A stretch of 64,000 nucleotides of DNA from Candidatus Omnitrophota bacterium (GCA_028693815.1 JAQUUP010000004.1:29683-93682); one strand, 5' to 3'; positions 45,277 to 55,114 are shown, counted from the first letter of the stretch. Notes: generated from the letters alone by a model not told the origin. Program-made: numbers and translations.

Positions 45277-46152
45277 ATGAAAAAATTGAAATTAGGGCTA
45301 CCTAAGGGAAGCTTGCAAGAATCTACGATCAATGTTTTTGAACGCGCTGGATTTAAAGTTCGCATGTCAAGTCGTTCATATTTTCCTGTGATTGATGATG
45401 ACGAGATTGAGATTGTGTTGTTGCGTGCGCAAGAAATGTCGCGATACGTGGAAGACTCAGCCCTTGATTGTGGGATTACAGGCAATGATTGGATTGAAGA
45501 AAATGGATCGGATATTGTACGTTTAGCAGATCTTCTTTATGCGAAGCAAAGTGCGTCAAAAGTACGTTGGGTCGTCGCTGTTCCAGAATCATCTAAAATT
45601 AAGACAGTCAAAGATTTGCAAGGCAAGCGTATCGCTACAGAGCTTGCGAATGCCACAAAAAAATATTTGAAGAAAAATAAAGTAAAAGCAGAGGTTGAAT
45701 TTAGCTGGGGTGCAACGGAAGCTAAGGTGGCATCGGGTTTGGTTGACGCAATTGTTGAGCTGACAGAAACAGGCAGTAGCCTTAAGGCCAACAAGCTTCG
45801 CATTATTTCAACTGTGTGTGAGTCTGCGACACAATTTATTGCTAATAAAAAATCATATCAAGACTCCTGGAAAAGAAAAAAGATGGAGCAAGTGGTCATG
45901 CTTTTAAAGGGTGCCTTGGATGCCGAGAGCATGGTGGGTTTGAAGATGAATGCACAAGAAAACGATCTTAATAAAATTTTAAAAGTGCTTCCAGCGCTTC
46001 AAAATCCGACGGTGTCACCATTGGCGAAAGAAGGTTGGGTTGCGATCGAAACAGTGATTCGAGAAAATGTTGTTCGTATTTTGATCCCAGAGCTTAAAAG
46101 CGCTGGAGCTTGTGGTATTATTGAATATCCATTAAACAAATTGATTAACTAA
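45277..46152 (+). CDS. hisG: ATP phosphoribosyltransferase, long form with C-terminal regulatory domain
   Basis: The N-terminus [23 protein letters not shown] and the 291-aa length match the long form. Confidence 0.85.
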
Positions 46153-46171
46153 ATTAAGGAACAGTTGTCTT

Positions 46172-46273
46172 ATGCCTTGTGGAAAAAAGAAAAAAAGAAA
46201 AAAGATTACTACGCATAAAAGAAAAAAATTAAGAAAATCTTTGCGTCATTTGAAAAAACGTGACCATAAATAA
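46172..46273 (+). CDS. 33-aa extremely basic peptide, candidate bS22-like (DUF1713/AURKAIP1-type) ribosomal protein
   Basis: The peptide MPCGKKKKRKKITTHKRKKLRKSLRHLKKRDHK has an RBS-like AAGGAA upstream. It falls below the ORF-track cutoff. It resembles the mycobacterial bS22 pattern KKRRKRMSKKKHRKLLRR. Confidence 0.4.
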   Translation: MPCGKKKKRKKITTHKRKKLRKSLRHLKKRDHK

Positions 46274-46279
46274 TTTTTA

Positions 46280-47260
46280 ATGAGATTTTTTATTAGAAGA
46301 ATTTTTATTTGGATAAGCATATTCGGACTTTGCATGGCAGGGTTTTTAAGCCCTGCCATTGCTGTTGAATCACGAGATGCAAAGGCTCGTGCGCTTGCGC
46401 ATTATACGATGGGATTGATCCATGATTGGAATGGATCTGTCGACGAAGCGATCGAGGAATATCAAAAATCGATTCGCATTGAGCAAGATAATTATGCGAC
46501 TCATTTAAAGCTTGGATCAAATTATGGCCGAGTTGGCGATTTTGAAAAAGCGGTGAAGGAATTAGAAATTGCATCAGACCTTAATCCAAAAGATATTCAA
46601 GCCCACTATCTTTTGGCTCTCATTTATTCCTCTCAATCAAAAGAAGTTCAGGCCACAAATGAATACGAAATTATTTTAACGCGCATTGCTGAAGAAAATC
46701 CAGAAAGCCCAGAGGCGATTGCGTTTTTAGGTCAGCTTTATTATTCCGAAGGAAAAACAAAAAAAGCCATTGAGCAGTTTGAAAAAATTATTTTGATTGA
46801 GCCAAATAATGCAGAAATTTTATCTATTTTAGGTTCGCTTTATTTAGAGGTTCAACAAAGAAAAAAAGCCATTGATTTTTTTAAGCGTGCGATCGCTATT
46901 GATCCGATTCATGACGGAAGTCTAAATTCTTTAGGGTATTTGTATGCCGAAGATGGAATCAATATTGATGAGGCGATTGATTTGATTCAGCGCGCGTTGA
47001 CGGTTGATCCAGAAAATGGTGCTTATCTGGATAGTTTAGGATGGGCTTATTATAAAAAAGGTGATTATGAAAAGGCTCTTTTATTTTTAGAAAGAGCTGC
47101 AAAATTTATTGAAGATCCTGTTATTTATGATCATATCGGAGATGTCTATTTAAAGATGAATAAGCCAAAGAGTGCGGTTCGTTTTTGGCAAAAATCAGTG
47201 GATATGTTGCCTGATCAAAAAGAAGTTTTGAAGAAAATACAAAAGATACAAAGCCATTAG
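46280..47260 (+). CDS. secreted TPR-repeat protein
   Basis: It has a signal peptide and multiple TPR motifs. Confidence 0.7.
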   Translation: MRFFIRRIFIWISIFGLCMAGFLSPAIAVESRDAKARALAHYTMGLIHDWNGSVDEAIEEYQKSIRIEQDNYATHLKLGSNYGRVGDFEKAVKELEIASDLNPKDIQAHYLLALIYSSQSKEVQATNEYEIILTRIAEENPESPEAIAFLGQLYYSEGKTKKAIEQFEKIILIEPNNAEILSILGSLYLEVQQRKKAIDFFKRAIAIDPIHDGSLNSLGYLYAEDGINIDEAIDLIQRALTVDPENGAYLDSLGWAYYKKGDYEKALLFLERAAKFIEDPVIYDHIGDVYLKMNKPKSAVRFWQKSVDMLPDQKEVLKKIQKIQSH

Positions 47261-47280
47261 ATTTTAGCGAATTTAAATTT

Positions 47281-48138
47281 ATGAAAAGCATTTGCCTGCG
47301 ATCTCCCGCCAAATTAAACCTTTCTTTGCATGTTGTCAGCAAAAGACCAGATGGTTATCATAATCTTTCAACTCTTTTTGAGAAAATTAATCTGTTTGAT
47401 GACATTCGCTTGAGCTTGCGAGCGGATAAAAGAATTCGTATTTTTTGTGATCATCCGAGTGTTCCAAAAGGTCCTAAGAACTTAGTGTACAAGGCAGCTG
47501 AAATGCTTCGAAAAGATTGCCAAGTCTCAATTGGCATTGATATTCACATTAAAAAACGCATTCCTGTCGCAGCCGGGTTGGCTGGAGGATCTAGCAATGC
47601 GGCCACAGTTCTTTTGGGTCTTAATCAGATTTGGGGTTTGAAATTGACTGAAAACCAACTTGTTTGTTATGCCAAGCGAATTGGAAGTGATGTGCCATTA
47701 TTTATATATAAATATATATGGGCTTTAGGAGTCGAGCGCGGGGATTGTATTAAAAACGTCAATTTGAGCAATAAAATGTGGCATATTTTGATTATTCCTG
47801 GCATAAAAGTGTATTCACAAGAGGTATTTAGGGCATTTAAAATGAAGTTGACAAAGAGAAAAGATAATGCTACTATTCTTACTCGTGCGTTGAGAGAAGG
47901 GGCTTATCAGAAGGTTAGCCAGCTTCTTTTAAATGATTTGGAGGCAGCTATTGTGCATGCCCATCCACAATTATTAAAAATAAAGAATAATATAGAATAT
48001 ATGACCGGACTTAATATGTGTTTTTCCGGTAGCGGGCCTTCAATTTTTGGTATTGTTGAATCAGAAAAAGAGGCAAAGAAGATGCAATCTATATTATCAG
48101 CTCGCTATAAACAAGTATTTGTTGTTAGGACATTGTAA
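47281..48138 (+). CDS. ispE: 4-diphosphocytidyl-2-C-methyl-D-erythritol kinase
   Basis: A GHMP kinase motif (PVAAGLAGGSSNAAT) and the N-terminal KLNLSLHV are present. Confidence 0.85.
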   Translation: MKSICLRSPAKLNLSLHVVSKRPDGYHNLSTLFEKINLFDDIRLSLRADKRIRIFCDHPSVPKGPKNLVYKAAEMLRKDCQVSIGIDIHIKKRIPVAAGLAGGSSNAATVLLGLNQIWGLKLTENQLVCYAKRIGSDVPLFIYKYIWALGVERGDCIKNVNLSNKMWHILIIPGIKVYSQEVFRAFKMKLTKRKDNATILTRALREGAYQKVSQLLLNDLEAAIVHAHPQLLKIKNNIEYMTGLNMCFSGSGPSIFGIVESEKEAKKMQSILSARYKQVFVVRTL

Positions 48139-48170
48139 ATTTAGCCTGTAACTTAGGCAAGGAGGCAACA

Positions 48171-48614
48171 ATGGAAATAACAGAAATTCGAGTATTCTTA
48201 AAAGACGGACAAGACAAGAAGCTCAAAGCATACACAACAGTTACTTTTGATGATTGTTTTGTCGTTCGGAATATTAAGGTTATTCAGTCGACAAATGGGC
48301 TTTTTATTGCGATGCCTTCACGTAAGGTGAGGTTATCGTGTCCTAAATGTCATTTTAGAAATGAAATAGGTAGTAAGTTTTGTAATCATTGCGGTGCTGG
48401 ATTAAGTGTTAAGAATGTTTCGGCGGCTACGCCTGAAGATTCAAAAGCAGAGCATCGTGATATCGCGCATCCTGTTACGAAAGAGTTTCGTGATCAACTG
48501 CAAAAAAAAGTTTTAGAAGCATATGAAAAAGAAGTGGGATCTAGTAGCGCAAAGGAAAAAAAGCCTTTAGAAGAAGACGTTGCAGATAGTATTTTAGGGA
48601 CTGAAGATTATTAA
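48171..48614 (+). CDS. spoVG: SpoVG-family protein with an inserted CxxC...CxxC zinc ribbon
   Basis: The SpoVG core MEITEIRVF...NGLFIAMPSRKV ... EHRDIAHPV is interrupted by RLSCPKCHFRNEIGSKFCNHCGAG. Confidence 0.8.
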   Translation: MEITEIRVFLKDGQDKKLKAYTTVTFDDCFVVRNIKVIQSTNGLFIAMPSRKVRLSCPKCHFRNEIGSKFCNHCGAGLSVKNVSAATPEDSKAEHRDIAHPVTKEFRDQLQKKVLEAYEKEVGSSSAKEKKPLEEDVADSILGTEDY

Positions 48615-48631
48615 AAGAAGGTTTTAAATAT

Positions 48632-48702
48632 TGCCCGGTGGTGTAATGGTAACACACAAGAATTTGGATCTTGCGTTTCAGGTTCGAGCCCTGGCTGGGC
48701 AG
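48632..48702 (+). tRNA. tRNA-Gln (anticodon TTG)
   Basis: A cloverleaf was folded by hand. The acceptor stem is TGCCCGG/CTGGGCA with a U1-A72 pair. The D stem is GTGT/ACAC. The anticodon stem is CAAGA/TCTTG with loop ATTTGGA. The T arm is TCAGG-TTCGAGC-CCTGG. CCA is not encoded, and a T7 run follows. Confidence 0.75.
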
Positions 48703-48723
48703 TTTTTTTAAAGAAGTATAACC

Positions 48724-49986
48724 ATGGTTCAAACTGGCTCGATTATTTTGGCTGCAGGTAAGGGGACCCGGATGAATTCCGAGGAACCAAAAGTTTTGCA
48801 TAGCGTTTGTGAGCGAGCGATGATTGATTATGTGGTTGATACGGCTAAAGCAGCTAGTTCGAAGATATGTATTGTTTTGGGTCACGGGCACGAGCTCATT
48901 GAAAAGAAGTTTGGATCAGATATCCATATAGCGCTTCAAGAGAAGCTTTTAGGTACAGCTGATGCCATTAAATCTGCGCAATCTTGTTTTAAAAATTTTA
49001 AGGGTGATATTTTAGTTTTATGCGGAGATGTGCCACTTTTGAAAGTGGCAAGCGTTCGAAAGCTTTTAGTTGCCCATCAAAGATCTAAGGCTGCGTGTAC
49101 GTTTTTAAGCGCAGAACTTAAGAACCCTAAAGGGTATGGACGGGTTATCCGTAAAAATGGAAATAATGTGGTTGCAATTCGCGAAGATAAAGATGCAACG
49201 CCAAAAGAAAAGTCTATTTGTGAAATTAATACAGGGCTTTATTGTTTTAAGGCGCAGGATTTGTTTGACGGCTTGAAGAAGATTGCAGTAAATAAAAAAA
49301 AGAATGAATATTACCTAACAGATATTATTTCTGTTTTTGTTAAAGAGAATAAAGATGTTCGCGTTATAAAGTTAGACAATCCTGCAGAAGGATTAGGCAT
49401 CAATACGCGCAAAGATCTCGCAGAGGCAAATCGTATTTTGAACAAAAGAACGTTAGATAAATTAATGGATCAAGGTGTTACGATTGTTGATCCGAACACA
49501 ACCTATATTGGAGCAAACGTTAAGGTTGGACAGGATACCATTGTTTATCCGTTTGCATTTATTGAAAATGATGTTGTTATTGGCAAACGATGTAAACTAG
49601 GTCCATTTTGCCATATTCGTCCTCAGTCTCGTATTAAAGATGGTGCTCAGATTGGGAACTTTACTGAAGTGTCTCGATCAACAGTTGGCGAACAAAGCTT
49701 GATGAAACATTTTGGATTTTTAGGTGATACGGTTGTTGGTAAAAAGGTTAATATTGGTGCAGGTGTTGTGACCGCAAATTATGATGGAATAAAAAAGAGT
49801 AAAACGGTGATTGGTGATCAAGCTTTTATTGGGTCAGATTCGATTTTAGTGGCTCCTGTTAAGATTGGCAAAAAAGCTATGACAGCGGCTGGATGTGTTG
49901 TCCCTAAAAATAGAAATGTTCCCAATGGAAAAACAATGGTTGGAGTTCCTGGAAGAATAAAGTCGAAAGGAAAGACGAATGAATAA
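48724..49986 (+). CDS. glmU: bifunctional UDP-N-acetylglucosamine pyrophosphorylase / glucosamine-1-phosphate N-acetyltransferase
   Basis: An N-terminal nucleotidyltransferase motif (LAAGKGTRM) is followed by C-terminal left-handed beta-helix hexapeptide repeats. Confidence 0.9.
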   Translation: MVQTGSIILAAGKGTRMNSEEPKVLHSVCERAMIDYVVDTAKAASSKICIVLGHGHELIEKKFGSDIHIALQEKLLGTADAIKSAQSCFKNFKGDILVLCGDVPLLKVASVRKLLVAHQRSKAACTFLSAELKNPKGYGRVIRKNGNNVVAIREDKDATPKEKSICEINTGLYCFKAQDLFDGLKKIAVNKKKNEYYLTDIISVFVKENKDVRVIKLDNPAEGLGINTRKDLAEANRILNKRTLDKLMDQGVTIVDPNTTYIGANVKVGQDTIVYPFAFIENDVVIGKRCKLGPFCHIRPQSRIKDGAQIGNFTEVSRSTVGEQSLMKHFGFLGDTVVGKKVNIGAGVVTANYDGIKKSKTVIGDQAFIGSDSILVAPVKIGKKAMTAAGCVVPKNRNVPNGKTMVGVPGRIKSKGKTNE

Positions 49987-50917
49987 ATTAGCAATTATTA
50001 CAGGTAACGCTAACCCTGAATTAGCAAAAGAAATTTGTCAGCATCTCGGGATATTTTTGACAAAAGCGCTTGTTGGACGTTTTAGCGAAGGTGAGATTCG
50101 AGTCCATATTGAAGAAAATGTTCGTGGAAAAGATGTCTTTATTGTTCAGTCAACGTGTCGTCCGACAAATGATAATTTTATGGAACTTTTAATTTTAATT
50201 GATGCGATTAGGCGTGCATCGCCTAGACGAATTACAGCGGTGCTTCCGTATTATGGATATGCAAGACAAGATAGAAAAGATCAACCAAGAGTTCCAATTA
50301 CGGCTAAGCTTGTCGCTAATCTTATTACTGGTGCTGGGGCTGATCGCGTGTTGACAATGGATCTACATGCAAGCCAGATTCAAGGTTTTTTTGATATCCC
50401 AGTCGACCATGTTTATGCGATTAATACGATTAGCGAATATTTTATTAACAAGAAAATGAAAGATTTAGTGGTTGTTTCTCCTGATGTCGGTGGCATTAAA
50501 ATGGCGCGGGCTTATGCTAAAAAATTATCTGCAGATTTAGCCATTGTTGACAAGAGACGAGATAGCCCAGAAAAAACAGAAGTTATGCATATTTTGGGTG
50601 ATGTGAAAGGTAAGAAAGTTGTTTTGGTGGATGATATTATCGCAACTGCCGGTTCGTTGGTTGAGGCGATTGAAGAGCTGAAAAAACGAGGCGTTATTGA
50701 AGCGTATGCGGCTGTAAGTCATGGCGTTTTGTCCGGGGATGCGTTAAAAAGAATTGAAGAATGTGACATTTTAAAAGAGGTTGTAATTACCAATAGTATT
50801 CCTCTGGAAGATTCTAAAAAGAATCCAAAGATAAAAGTTTTAAGTGTTGCTGCTTTGTTGGCAGAAGCGATTAAGAGAACTCATAACGAAGAATCTATTA
50901 GTTGCTTATTTGATTAA
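49979..50917 (+). CDS. prs: ribose-phosphate pyrophosphokinase
   Basis: The PRPP-binding motif VLVDDIIATAGS is present and the N-terminal pattern is conserved. Confidence 0.9.
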   Translation: MNKLAIITGNANPELAKEICQHLGIFLTKALVGRFSEGEIRVHIEENVRGKDVFIVQSTCRPTNDNFMELLILIDAIRRASPRRITAVLPYYGYARQDRKDQPRVPITAKLVANLITGAGADRVLTMDLHASQIQGFFDIPVDHVYAINTISEYFINKKMKDLVVVSPDVGGIKMARAYAKKLSADLAIVDKRRDSPEKTEVMHILGDVKGKKVVLVDDIIATAGSLVEAIEELKKRGVIEAYAAVSHGVLSGDALKRIEECDILKEVVITNSIPLEDSKKNPKIKVLSVAALLAEAIKRTHNEESISCLFD

Positions 50918-50954
50918 TCAAAAGTGAAAAATAAGAAGGCGGGTAGATGACAAA

Positions 50955-51650
50955 ATGGAAGAAATAAAATTAGACGTACAAATTAGAAGTCAAATAGGAA
51001 AAGAAGGTTCTCAAAAAGTTCGTAAGGAAGATTGTATTCCGGCGATTGTTTATGGTGAGCATAAAGATCCAACTGCGATTAAGGTTGATCGTAGGTCATT
51101 TGAGCGCATTAGGCGTGAGCATCGAGGAGAAAGCGTTGTTTTTCATTTAAATGTTTTAGATGGTGAAAAAAAGTTACGCGATTATGCAGCTCTTGTTAAA
51201 GAGGTTCAGCATCATCCAGTGAGCGATTCCCTTTTGCATATTGATTTTATTCGTATTTCTTTGACAGAAAAAATTGAGGTTAAAATACCAATTCATGTTC
51301 AAGGTGATGCTGTTGGTGTCAAGAAAAACGGTGGATCTGTGGATCACCATCTTCGGGAAATTGATGTTATTTGTTTGCCGACAAAAATTCCTTCGCATAT
51401 TGATGTTGATGTTTCTGATCTTGATATTCATGATGCGCTTCATGTTAAAGATCTTGTTTTTCCAGAGGGTGTTGTGACAGAACATGACTTGGAGTCTATT
51501 GTTGTTTCGATTGCTCCTCCGATGAGAGAGATTGAAGAAGAGCCTTCTGAAGAGGACGCGACGACAGAACCTGAAGTTATTAAAGAGAAGAAAAAAGAAG
51601 CTGCTTCTGAAAAAGCAGATTCTGAAAAAGAAGAAAAATTAGAAGGTTAG
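50955..51650 (+). CDS. rplY: 50S ribosomal protein L25 / general stress protein Ctc, with acidic C-terminal tail
   Basis: An L25 N-domain (RSQIGKEGSQKVRKEDCIPAIVYG) is present, followed by an acidic C-terminal tail. It sits in the glmU-prs-ctc-pth order. Confidence 0.85.
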   Translation: MEEIKLDVQIRSQIGKEGSQKVRKEDCIPAIVYGEHKDPTAIKVDRRSFERIRREHRGESVVFHLNVLDGEKKLRDYAALVKEVQHHPVSDSLLHIDFIRISLTEKIEVKIPIHVQGDAVGVKKNGGSVDHHLREIDVICLPTKIPSHIDVDVSDLDIHDALHVKDLVFPEGVVTEHDLESIVVSIAPPMREIEEEPSEEDATTEPEVIKEKKKEAASEKADSEKEEKLEG

Positions 51651-51654
51651 CCGC

Positions 51655-52248
51655 TTGTCTCAAAGTTATCTTATTATTGGGTTAGGAAACCCTGGAAAAG
51701 AGTATCAATTTACGCGGCATAATTTTGGATTTTTAGTTGTTTCAGAATTAGCAGAAAAGTATAAAATAAAATTTATTCGAAGTTCAAAATACCAAGGTTT
51801 TTTGGGCCATGGCAATATTGAAGGAAAAGATGTTTTTTTGCTGTTACCCCAAACGTATATGAATTGTTCTGGTGTTTCTGTTCGAAAGGTTGTTGAGGAT
51901 AAAGAAATTGCGCAACAGAATCTTTTGGTTGCGTATGATGATTTTCATATTGATTTTGGTTCTTTGCGTATACGAAACAAAGGAAGTGCTGGCGGACATA
52001 ACGGACTTCAGTCGATTATTGATAAGTTGATGACACAAGAGTTTTCGCGATTAAGACTTGGTGTTGGATCGCCGAATGGAAAGAAGAGTGCAACCGATTT
52101 TGTTCTTTCTGATTTTAGCGCGAGAGAAAAAAAACAGCTAGATGAGCAAATACAAAAAGCTGTTAGTTGTTTTTTGGTTTTTTTAAAAGAAGGAATAAGT
52201 CAGGCAATGGCCATATTTAACAAAAGGAATAAAAATGAAGAAGTATGA
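51655..52248 (+). CDS. pth: peptidyl-tRNA hydrolase
   Basis: The motif LIIGLGNPGKEY...HNFGF is present. A TTG start is used. Confidence 0.85.
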   Translation: MSQSYLIIGLGNPGKEYQFTRHNFGFLVVSELAEKYKIKFIRSSKYQGFLGHGNIEGKDVFLLLPQTYMNCSGVSVRKVVEDKEIAQQNLLVAYDDFHIDFGSLRIRNKGSAGGHNGLQSIIDKLMTQEFSRLRLGVGSPNGKKSATDFVLSDFSAREKKQLDEQIQKAVSCFLVFLKEGISQAMAIFNKRNKNEEV

Positions 52249-52564
52249 ATTAGTTGTTATCCTAGATGCTCACTTAAGTCAGGATGAAAAAGAAAAGGTT
52301 ATTAAGGCAGCTGCTGATGGTATCGCCAAAGGCGAAGGTAAGGTGATCAATAGTCAAGTTTGGCTAGAGAAGCATAAGTTTACATTTAAAATTAAGAATC
52401 GGACAGAAGGAACATATTATCTGATTAATTTTGAAAGTAAGCAAGCTTCTGTGATAAAGATCCATAAGATTTTGAGCGCAAACGAAGATATTCTTCGCTT
52501 TGTGATTACTAATGTTGAGTCGAAATCCAGCGGTGAGTCGAAATCTAATGCTGAGTCGAAATAA
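52235..52564 (+). CDS. rpsF: 30S ribosomal protein S6
   Basis: The N-terminus YELVVILDAHLSQDEKEKVI...W is S6-like. It is followed by ssb and rpsR. Confidence 0.85.
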   Translation: MKKYELVVILDAHLSQDEKEKVIKAAADGIAKGEGKVINSQVWLEKHKFTFKIKNRTEGTYYLINFESKQASVIKIHKILSANEDILRFVITNVESKSSGESKSNAESK

Positions 52565-52585
52565 GGAAAAGAGAGGAATAAAGGA

Positions 52586-53026
52586 ATGGCGAGTTTAAAC
52601 AAAATATTTTTAATTGGAAATTTAACAAAAGACCCTGAATTGCGTTATACGCCTAACGGTGTTGGAGTTGTCAATTTACGCGTTGCGGTGAATCGAAAAT
52701 ATCGCGATCGAGCCTCAGGAGAGCTAAAAGAAGAAACATGTTTTATTACAGTAACGGCTTGGGACAAGCAAGCAGAAGCATGTAATCAGTATTTGGCAAA
52801 AGGGAGTCCTATTTTTGTTGAAGGAACACTTCAATCGCGTTCATGGGAAACAAATGATGGGCAAAAAAGAAATACTATTGAAGTTAGGGCTGAGCGAGTT
52901 CAATTTTTAGGTTCTTCAAAAGATTCTGCATTAAAAGGTGAAGAAAGCCTTGATGCAGATACTCAGGTAGAAGATTCTCTGAAGCCAGAGAATATTTCTT
53001 GGGATGAAGAAGAAAATGCAGTTTAA
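52586..53026 (+). CDS. ssb: single-stranded DNA-binding protein
   Basis: An OB-fold N-terminus ([22 protein letters not shown]) and an acidic C-terminal tail (DEEENAV) are present. Confidence 0.9.
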
Positions 53027-53040
53027 AAAAGGAAAAAATA

Positions 53041-53310
53041 ATGCTAAGAAAAAAAGATGATAAAAAGAAATTAGATCGAAAGAAGGTCGCTCGACGTCCA
53101 CGCGTTCGAATTGGTCTTCCGAAGGATACAAAAATTGACTATAAGAGTATTGATTTGTTGTTAAGAGTCACGACAACAAATGGCAAAATTATGTCTCGAC
53201 GATTTACCGGGGCAAATTCAAAGCAACAGCGGGATCTAACAAAAGCGGCAAAGCAAGCTAAATTTTTAGCTCTTGTTCCTGTCGGATCATCAAAGAGGTT
53301 TTTAAAATGA
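53041..53310 (+). CDS. rpsR: 30S ribosomal protein S18
   Basis: The S18 core [26 protein letters not shown] is present. Confidence 0.85.
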
Positions 53311-53750
53311 AAGTTATTTTATCACAAAGCATAGATAAGCTAGGAAAAGTCGGGGATGTCATAAAGGTTAAAGATGGTTTTGCTCGAAATTTTCTAATTC
53401 CTCAAAAACAAGCCTATCTTGCAACGGCTCAGAATTTAAAGAGGGTTGAAAAACAAAAAGCAAAGCATCAAGCTGAAGCATTAGAGAGAAAAGCACAGGC
53501 AGAAGAATTTTCAAAGAAATTGTCAGGTGTTTCTTGTACGATTAATGTTGAAGTTAACGATTTAGAAAAATTGTATGGAGCTATTTCAGAGACTGATATT
53601 GCCAAAGCAATTAATGATGAAGGTTTTGACATTAACAAAAAAGATATTGTGATCGAGCAGCCAATTGAAGAGTTGGGCATTTTTGAAGTTGGTGTTCGTG
53701 TCCATCCAGAGGTAACAGCAAAAGTTAGAGTATGGGTAACCAAGAAATAA
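53307..53750 (+). CDS. rplI: 50S ribosomal protein L9
   Basis: The N-terminus [32 protein letters not shown] is L9-like. Confidence 0.9.
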
Positions 53751-55114
53751 AAACCGCACGTAACTCTCAGGATGTTTTTCAATCTTTTGCAGATGGAAAA
53801 GTAACGCCTCAGAATATTGAGGCAGAGAAATCAGTGCTAGGATCAATGATGATTGATCAAGAGGCCATTGGTTTAGCTGCAGAAAATTTGAGCGCTGAAT
53901 CTTTTTATGAGTTTTCTCATCAACGAATTTTTGATGCGATTTTAAAACTTTACAATGATCGAAGAAATGTTGATCTTATTACACTTTCTGACGAACTAAA
54001 ATCTCAGGGAATTTTAGATGAAGTTGGGGGTGTTAGCTACTTAACAGTATTGATTGATTTGGTTCCTTCTTCGGCTAACATTGAGCATTATGCGCGCATT
54101 GTTAAAGAAAAAAATATCCAGCGACAACTTATTAAAAATGCAACACAAATTATTGCCGAGAGTTATAAGCCGGGAGTTGACATTGATGAGCTTGTGGATG
54201 GCGCTGAAAAGCTTATTTTTCAGATTGCAACAGCACGTCTTAAGCAAGATGCTATGCATATTAAGGAGCTCATTAAAGAGACCATCGAAACAATTGATAA
54301 TTTGTACCAACGAAAAGAATATATTACTGGTATTTCAACAGGTTTTACTGAATTTGACAAAATGACTTCTGGCCTTCAGAAGTCAGATTTGGTTATTGTG
54401 GCTGGGCGTCCATCTATGGGAAAAAGTTCATGGGCGATGAATGTGGCAGAATATGCTGCAGTAGAAAATGGAGCGGGAGTTGCGATTTTTAGCTTGGAAA
54501 TGTCAAAAGAACAACTTGTTCAACGTATGCTTTGTTCTCATGGACGCGTTGATGCGCATAAGGTTCGAAGTGGATTCTTGCTTCCATCAGATTGGCCCAA
54601 GCTAACAGCAGCTGCAGGAAAATTATCAGCGGCACCTATTTTTATTGATGATACGCCAGCGATTTCTGTTTTGGAGTTACGTACAAAGGCAAGACGATTG
54701 AAGGCAAGCCATGATATTCAACTTATTATTGTTGATTATTTGCAGCTAATGCGAGGAAGTGCGCGCGCGGATAGCCGGCAACAGGAAATTTCTGATATTT
54801 CTCGATCACTTAAAGCTCTTGCGCGTGAAATTAGCGTTCCTGTTATTGGCATTAGTCAGCTTTCTCGTGCTGTAGAAAGTCGACAAGACCATAGGCCGCA
54901 GCTTTCTGATCTTCGTGAATCTGGCGCGATCGAACAAGATGCAGATCTTGTTGTTTTGCTTATGCGCGAGGAATATTATAATCCTACCGAAGAAAACAGA
55001 GGCATCGCTGAAATAATTATTGCGAAACAAAGAAATGGACCTGTTGGAACAAATAAGGCGACATTTATTAAAGAATATATGAAATTTGAGAATTTAGCAA
55101 CCAGATCTGAATAA
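53732..55114 (+). CDS. dnaB: replicative DNA helicase DnaB
   Basis: The N-terminal PQNIEAEKSVLGSMMID, a Walker A motif (GRPSMGKSS) and the RecA-like motifs are present. Confidence 0.9.
   Translation: MGNQEIKTARNSQDVFQSFADGKVTPQNIEAEKSVLGSMMIDQEAIGLAAENLSAESFYEFSHQRIFDAILKLYNDRRNVDLITLSDELKSQGILDEVGGVSYLTVLIDLVPSSANIEHYARIVKEKNIQRQLIKNATQIIAESYKPGVDIDELVDGAEKLIFQIATARLKQDAMHIKELIKETIETIDNLYQRKEYITGISTGFTEFDKMTSGLQKSDLVIVAGRPSMGKSSWAMNVAEYAAVENGAGVAIFSLEMSKEQLVQRMLCSHGRVDAHKVRSGFLLPSDWPKLTAAAGKLSAAPIFIDDTPAISVLELRTKARRLKASHDIQLIIVDYLQLMRGSARADSRQQEISDISRSLKALAREISVPVIGISQLSRAVESRQDHRPQLSDLRESGAIEQDADLVVLLMREEYYNPTEENRGIAEIIIAKQRNGPVGTNKATFIKEYMKFENLATRSE

Follow-up and report, generated by a model that had tools for sequence, protein, structure and literature searches.

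The SpoVG protein encoded in the window, the stretch of 64,000 nucleotides of Candidatus Omnitrophota DNA analysed here, carries an internal insertion that is predicted to fold as a C4 zinc ribbon and that starts one residue past the basic doublet of the canonical nucleic-acid-binding surface. The insert is real, ancient and strongly conserved, and it is not unique to the genome from which the window was taken. SpoVG with such a ribbon is the form found in every sequence that we examined from the Omnitrophota and the Planctomycetota, at least two phyla of the PVC group. What is new is the probable zinc-ribbon nature of the insert, its sharing by the Omnitrophota and its location relative to binding residues mapped in other SpoVG proteins. 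The gene and its parts are as follows.

48171..48614, plus strand: spoVG with the predicted internal zinc ribbon, 147 aa and a stop codon; Pfam PF04026, 4.4e-30
48171..48326, plus strand: N-terminal SpoVG beta-sheet core, residues 1-52, with the basic doublet R51-K52 at its end; aligns to solved chains
48327..48404, plus strand: predicted zinc-ribbon module, residues 53-78 (VRLS-CPKC-HFRNEIGSKF-CNHC-GAGL), from Pfam, AlphaFold2 (AF2) and Foldseek
48405..48452, plus strand: variable linker back to the SpoVG core, residues 79-94 (SVKNVSAATPEDSKAE), with low conservation
48453..48614, plus strand: SpoVG C-terminal part and stop codon, with the HRDIAHP motif (95-101), an alpha-helix (104-127) and an acidic disordered tail

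The open reading frame begins with ATG, is preceded by an AAGGAGG ribosome-binding site and runs in a continuous frame. Its product matches PF04026 with 104.1 bits (cut-off 29.6; E=4.4e-30), and positions 1-82 of the 82 in the profile are found across residues 1-120. The NCBIfam equivalog model NF009749 (‘septation regulator SpoVG’) gives 94.6 bits, below its curated cut-off of 108 bits, because the insert splits the match into two stretches. We therefore assign the protein to the SpoVG family without treating it as equivalog to that of the Firmicutes. A 100% identical sequence from a Candidatus Omnitrophica MAG (P0001) is named by NCBI ‘septation protein SpoVG family protein’, and the closest genome match among the loci listed is that of Candidatus Aceula lacicola, with 82% identity. 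By its family membership, the window protein would be a small nucleic-acid-binding (DNA/RNA) global regulator.

Alignment with the solved SpoVG chains 2i9x, 2i9z and 2ia9 gives two blocks, residues 1-52 and 93-120, and leaves 53-92 as the extra segment. The first block corresponds to residues 4-54 of the solved chains and the second to residues 58-85 of 2i9x and 2i9z. In a Foldseek search of the PDB with the predicted structure, the top 10 matches were all SpoVG chains (2i9z, 2i9x, 2ia9), with probability 1.00 and target-normalised TM-scores of 0.70-0.79. A reading made earlier from the sequence alone (hereafter the sequence-only reading) had taken the protein for a SpoVG homologue; the PF04026 match, the solved-chain alignments and the top Foldseek matches bear this out.

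Compared with canonical SpoVG (B. subtilis, S. aureus/S. epidermidis, Listeria, Borrelia; 2ia9, 2i9x, 2i9z), the window protein has the same fold and a full-length profile match, and it retains the PSRK doublet, the RDIAHP motif and the C-terminal helix. It differs in having a ribbon and linker of about 43 residues in place of TPDGEF, and H rather than F before RDIAHP. The six-residue loop T52-F57 of S. aureus SpoVG (TPDGEF) is represented here by V53-H95, about 43 residues, for a net gain of about 37 aa. The replacement of a TPDGEF-type loop by some 37 extra residues, as the sequence-only reading had described it, is thus seen both in the alignment with S. aureus SpoVG and in that with the solved chains.

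The histidine is a substitution in its own right. At this position (H95; 48453-48455), canonical SpoVG carries F (EFRDIAHP), and at least 90% of zinc-ribbon forms carry H (HRDIAHP/HADIAHP). It accompanies the insert, and its role might lie in docking the ribbon or in binding metal or a ligand.

The insert follows the pattern C-x2-C-x3-N-x6-C-x2-C-G, and its predicted zinc ligands are C57-x2-C60-x10-C71-x2-C74. The profile Zn_Ribbon_1 (PF13240) matches it with 24.8 bits within the full protein and 29.2 bits on the excised insert (cut-off 25). When 35 diverse inserts were scanned, DZR (PF12773) was detected in all 35, PF13240 in 34 and the RanBP zinc finger (PF00641) in 24; precomputed Pfam annotation of many homologues already pairs PF13240/PF12773 with PF04026. 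For PF00641, the window insert itself scores 15.4 bits (cut-off 27), and the 24 inserts counted as matches are those with E<=0.1, the best at 2.9e-07. The spacing C-x2-C-x3-N-x6-C-x2-C is equal to that of the RanBP2-type consensus (PROSITE PS01358), for which the pattern W-x-C-x(2,4)-C-x3-N-x6-C-x2-C was used. The tryptophan of RanBP2-type fingers is missing, position -2 being mostly D, V, A or S among 394 homologues, and we treat the likeness to these fingers as a resemblance and not as membership.

With generic PF13240/PF12773 ribbons and PF00641 fingers, the insert has in common the CxxC-x10-CxxC-G pattern and an aromatic residue before the third Cys. Unlike generic zinc ribbons, it is an insertion into an internal loop and not a terminal module. 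A profile built from the insert only and compared to PDB sequences retrieved generic zinc ribbons only (DZANK1, the ‘putative regulatory protein’ 9sfa, eL40, bL33, Rpb12, Nop10), and no functional lead emerged from this comparison. The families PF13240, PF12773 and PF00641 have no defined function to transfer.

In all homologues, 38-49 residues separate PSRK from HRD, and the segment that begins at G75 and stops just short of H95 measures 16-27 residues. The linker has a net charge that is negative in the Omnitrophota and positive in the Planctomycetota. In each of the three sequence sets, the knuckle has a mean net charge of +2.5 to +3.2, with no negative values, and nearly all homologues have a ribbon of net positive charge.

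Two AF2 monomer models were computed, one from an alignment of 50 Omnitrophota sequences and the other from 150 sequences of both phyla. The predicted strands span residues 3-10, 18-26, 30-40 and 43-47 and the helix 104-127, with pLDDT of 85-90 for the beta-sheet core and about 92 for the helix. With both alignments the ribbon (54-78) is modelled as two short beta-hairpins forming a compact knuckle with pLDDT of ~77-83. Confidence falls below 50 at residues 84-99 of the first model and at residues 89-96 of the second, and is also low in the tail; the deeper 150-sequence alignment brought no gain for the linker or for residues 89-96. Local Foldseek matches of the insert are NZF/RanBP2-type fingers, ZRANB2, eL40 and the ArnA zinc finger, with rmsd of 0.8-1.8 A over 26-28 residues and, owing to the small size of the domain, E-values that all exceed 1. 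The proposal that the C-x2-C...C-x2-C pair forms a C4 zinc ribbon, put forward in the sequence-only reading together with a call for structure prediction of the insert, is supported by the Pfam matches, the AF2 confidence and the Foldseek neighbours. The four cysteines would be expected to bind zinc.

The insert was then followed across sequence collections. In a search of 5.8 billion proteins, 4233 matches were obtained, and the best 120 (122-170 aa) all carry CxxC-x10-CxxC at the same site. A scan of genomes, one per GTDB species, returned at least 596 relatives; the best 80 are Omnitrophota-type MAGs, and the ribbon is encoded in 80/80 of these loci. In an exhaustive HMMER search of representatives of clusters at 50% identity, all but one of the best 150 matches (149/150) had the motif of four cysteines. 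Taking all fetched homologues, the four cysteines are present in 393/394 and C-x2-C-x3-N-x6-C-x2-C in 388/394.

In alignments of 50 and of 150 homologues, C57, C60, C71 and C74 are invariant. Other positions of the ribbon are also constrained: conservation over the 150 sequences from the two phyla reaches 90% or more for K63, N64, N72 and G75 (95% or more for N64 and G75), and it is 85-99% across the phyla when position 69, which is basic, and position 70, which is aromatic, are counted with these four. Conservation of the four cysteines at this level (393/394) is beyond what chance can account for. It reflects strong purifying selection across two phyla, and the insert is therefore judged functional.

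Carriers with names are found in both phyla. Those of the Planctomycetota include MCH8252621.1, Phycisphaerae and Sedimentisphaerales MAGs, and Anaerohalosphaera lusitana, a cultured planctomycete with the genome CP019791.1 whose SpoVG, P0337, is 46% identical to the window protein in an alignment unbroken through the insert. A profile search seeded with the long Planctomycetota-type forms gave at least 8000 candidates. The divergent short forms bearing a taxon name were again from Omnitrophota. Among the matches listed, no named example came from outside the Omnitrophota and the Planctomycetota/Phycisphaerae, and most metagenomic matches carry no taxon. The NCBI taxonomy treats the Omnitrophota as a separate phylum of the PVC group. 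The insert is thus widely present, an outcome that the sequence-only reading had named among those that would refute it, and SpoVG with the insert is the standard form in two phyla.

Many of the best 80 MAGs bear the title ‘uncultured Planctomycetales/Planctomycetia bacterium’ (binchicken assemblies; L002, L006, L009 and others). Because their SpoVG proteins are 58-75% identical to that of the window, we consider these titles to be probably placeholder or wrong taxonomy. As a set, the loci keep the Omnitrophota gene order.

A SpoVG insert has been described before. Gupta, Bhandari and Naushad (2012, Front Microbiol 3:327; PMC3444138) reported an insert of 32-36 aa at this site in SpoVG of all sequenced Planctomycetes, called it exclusive to them and worded it as ‘a 36 aa insert in a conserved region’. 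In that article the insert serves as a taxonomic marker only, neither zinc nor cysteine is named, and OP3 (now Omnitrophota) appears as a PVC member without a genome (PMC3444138). The window protein corresponds to this insert in having a net ~37 aa between K52 and H95, in the PSRK-RDIAHP region. Besides the similar length, the Planctomycetota proteins that we fetched share C-x2-C-x3-N-x6-C-x2-CG at the same site. The restriction to Planctomycetes given in the article does not hold, the window protein and the best 80 loci being Omnitrophota-type. Since the Omnitrophota share the insert, the published exclusivity needs correcting.

The sequence-only reading knew of no description of the variant. 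Its novelty has to be given up for the insert as such, which is in Gupta et al. 2012 (PMC3444138), and it stands, within the literature searched, for the zinc-ribbon nature, the occurrence in Omnitrophota and the function. In that literature, which comprised papers readable without subscription, Gupta et al. 2012 was the only relevant source on the insert and no paper dealt with its function.

The genomic neighbourhood of spoVG in the window consists of genes transcribed in the same direction.

45277-55114, plus strand: co-directional housekeeping cluster with hisG, a TPR protein gene, ispE, spoVG, tRNA-Gln, glmU, prs, L25/ctc, pth, rpsF, ssb, rplI and dnaB
47281..48138, plus strand: ispE (GHMP kinase), an ORF upstream of spoVG and separated from it by a gap of 32 nt
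48631..48703, plus strand: tRNA-Gln(UUG), directly downstream of spoVG; ARAGORN, and Rfam RF00005 with 55.2 bits

The order ispE-spoVG was found in 78/80 Omnitrophota loci, and in the other two the available stretch contains no match to ispE. The adjacency is also kept in Anaerohalosphaera lusitana, where a PF00288 gene precedes spoVG with a gap of 22 nt. In all 17 Omnitrophota loci tested (including L001, L003 and L005), tRNA-Gln lies after spoVG and before glmU. The order from hisG to L25 is whole in 55 of the 80 loci, and the others show a contiguous part of it within the available stretch.

In Firmicutes, spoVG-glmU-prs-ctc-pth forms an ancient housekeeping cluster, and we take the window neighbourhood, ispE ... 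spoVG-glmU-prs-ctc-pth, to have the same order. The order ispE-tRNA-Gln-prs-ctc-pth also occurs in Proteobacteria, without spoVG. A motif scan of all six frames of the window detected no second, canonical SpoVG paralogue. Since the gene lies within the ancestral cluster ispE-spoVG-tRNA-Gln-glmU-prs-L25-pth and is the sole SpoVG gene in the window, it is the housekeeping orthologue and not a stray or accessory paralogue.

Promoter and terminator scans of the ispE-spoVG gap gave nothing convincing, and tRNA-Gln was the only structured RNA near spoVG at Rfam gathering thresholds. Because the terminator scan detected no terminator between spoVG and tRNA-Gln, the tRNA may be co-transcribed with the spoVG cluster. 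We also considered the tRNA-Gln linkage as a functional clue and set it aside as probably just old synteny.

How the ribbon might act can be approached from the binding residues mapped in Firmicutes and Borrelia. DNA binding by these proteins requires a basic doublet located behind the PS motif (S. aureus K50-R51, Borrelia R53-R54), which probably touches the phosphate backbone (Jutras et al. 2013; PMC3688583). The DNA sequence specificity of S. aureus SpoVG is set by the six-residue stretch S66-E71, with which the helix begins (PMC3688583). RNA binding by Listeria and Borrelia SpoVG has also been reported in two further articles (PMC4959528; PMC11086051). By sequence mapping, the window equivalents are R51-K52 for the doublet and T103-D108 for the specificity stretch. 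All 150 zinc-ribbon homologues aligned have S50, R51, K52, D97, A99, H100, P101, R107 and Q111; with R51, K52, R107 and Q111 invariant, the canonical binding surface is retained.

The ribbon lies between R51-K52 and T103-D108, and its end is about 25 residues ahead of the recognition helix. Because it directly follows the doublet and precedes this helix, we place it at the rim of the SpoVG pocket, where it would add a contact to nucleic acid. The placement derives from the order of elements along the sequence, and we give placement and contact together an even chance of being right. An added surface for contact with nucleic acid or protein, as suggested in the sequence-only reading, is plausible and agrees with where the insert lies and with its charge. 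In the scenario that we propose, the hairpin loop after PSRK would have grown into a basic C4 ribbon, followed by a flexible linker of about 16-20 residues, in an ancestor shared with, or ancestral to, the Planctomycetota. Each subunit would thereby gain a second, electrostatically favourable contact to nucleic acid, as a clamp or as an extended footprint, and the preferred ligand of the ribbon would probably be single-stranded RNA or DNA. What the data show is the SpoVG fold, the site of the insert, its zinc-ribbon signature with the strict conservation of that signature, the retained SpoVG binding determinants and the spread over phyla; zinc binding, this contact and any regulatory role of the ribbon are what we infer.

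Several points weigh against a contact to nucleic acid. The structurally similar NZF/RanBP2 fingers often bind proteins (ubiquitin, Ran), no shared function is defined for small PF13240/DZR-type ribbons, and the W conserved in RNA-binding RanBP2-type fingers is missing. As to the placement of the ribbon, SpoVG is a dimer or tetramer, whereas the AF2 models are monomers.

One alternative is that the ribbon is a module for protein-protein contact or oligomerisation, with RNA polymerase, an RNase or a ribosomal component as partner, or linking dimers, and makes no contact to nucleic acid. Its nearest local structures include, besides the ubiquitin- and Ran-binding NZF and RanBP2 fingers, the ArnA finger of the ArnAB complex, and S. 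aureus SpoVG makes tetramer-sized complexes (PMC3688583). The disordered tails of the Planctomycetota proteins, with conserved motifs (EYDSLIADL, terminal FGAGIL) resembling partner-binding motifs, would also fit. We nevertheless hold this alternative to be unlikely, if worth keeping in sight: the knuckle is consistently basic, the insertion is at the nucleic-acid-binding face and not at a helix end or terminus, and the linked conserved genes are housekeeping neighbours only.

A somewhat weaker case can be made for a structural staple, that is, a neutral, lineage-specific insertion that was fixed early, stabilises the enlarged loop or the fold and has been kept because its removal would destabilise the protein. 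In ribosomal proteins and aminoacyl-tRNA synthetases many ribbons have mainly a structural role, and the insert weakly matches the zinc knuckle region of MetRS; the varying linker sequence, with a charge that flips sign between phyla, points in the same direction. The 85-99% conservation of K63, N64, basic 69, aromatic 70, N72 and G75 exceeds the needs of a staple, however, and canonical SpoVG folds well without any insert, so we judge this explanation improbable.

The Omnitrophota and many Phycisphaerae are anaerobes. To them, oxidative switching would be less obviously useful, which counts against the C4 site being a redox or metal sensor that switches SpoVG by cysteine oxidation or zinc loss, as in Hsp33 or RsrA. 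Four invariant cysteines in a regulator, adjoined by the nearly invariant H95 (F in canonical SpoVG), could suggest such a role, but the motif is that of a standard structural zinc ribbon without extra reactive cysteines, and we regard a sensor as very improbable.

Finally, the chance that the insertion is spurious or recent is negligible: a sequencing, assembly, frameshift or gene-calling artefact, against which the sequence-only reading had cautioned, is excluded by the continuous frame, the strong ribosome-binding site and the occurrence of the insert in many (hundreds of) independent assemblies, and a recent mobile insertion in one genome by its presence in 80/80 genomes, the top 120 proteins and 149/150 clusters.

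The Planctomycetota-type proteins show features of their own. Compared with them, proteins of the Omnitrophota form are short-tailed, and their tail and linker are both acidic. Many cluster representatives measure 200-520 aa and have tails in which R, G, E and D abound and whose last residues are often FGAGIL. In the Planctomycetota-type zinc-ribbon SpoVGs (P0128-P0270, for example P0164, P0257 and P0198), these disordered tails extend over 100-400 aa; a terminal FG[AG]G[IL] is found in 67/103 and an internal E-Y-D-S-L-I-A-D-L in 38/103. Both motifs are missing from the Omnitrophota form and look like short linear interaction motifs. A separate observation concerns P0124 (388 aa), which consists of four tandem canonical SpoVG domains without the zinc ribbon; its cluster, of 118 members, occurs on many long contigs, and two sources give it the name ‘DNA-binding cell septation regulator SpoVG’.

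Returning to the ribbon as a nucleic-acid contact at the pocket rim, a broader picture can be drawn, which we offer tentatively and with more doubt than confidence. The ribbon would be a RanBP2/ZRANB2-like second nucleic-acid module that makes SpoVG a bipartite clamp with altered specificity; its single origin would make it a synapomorphy of Omnitrophota and Planctomycetota within the PVC group, and with the long RGG/acidic disordered tails gained in the Planctomycetota, SpoVG may act there as an RNA-binding hub.

SpoVG is a widespread regulator with poorly understood workings, and its mechanism of nucleic-acid binding has been mapped in Firmicutes and Borrelia only. The Omnitrophota and Planctomycetota are two large, poorly studied phyla in which every sequence examined is of the zinc-ribbon form only. 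Sharing of the insert points either to a specific link between the two phyla or to an older origin within the PVC group, and the insert is a candidate shared-derived character for placing the Omnitrophota within that group. With an extra module between the mapped determinants, these proteins are also a natural variant for probing the interaction of the SpoVG pocket with DNA or RNA.
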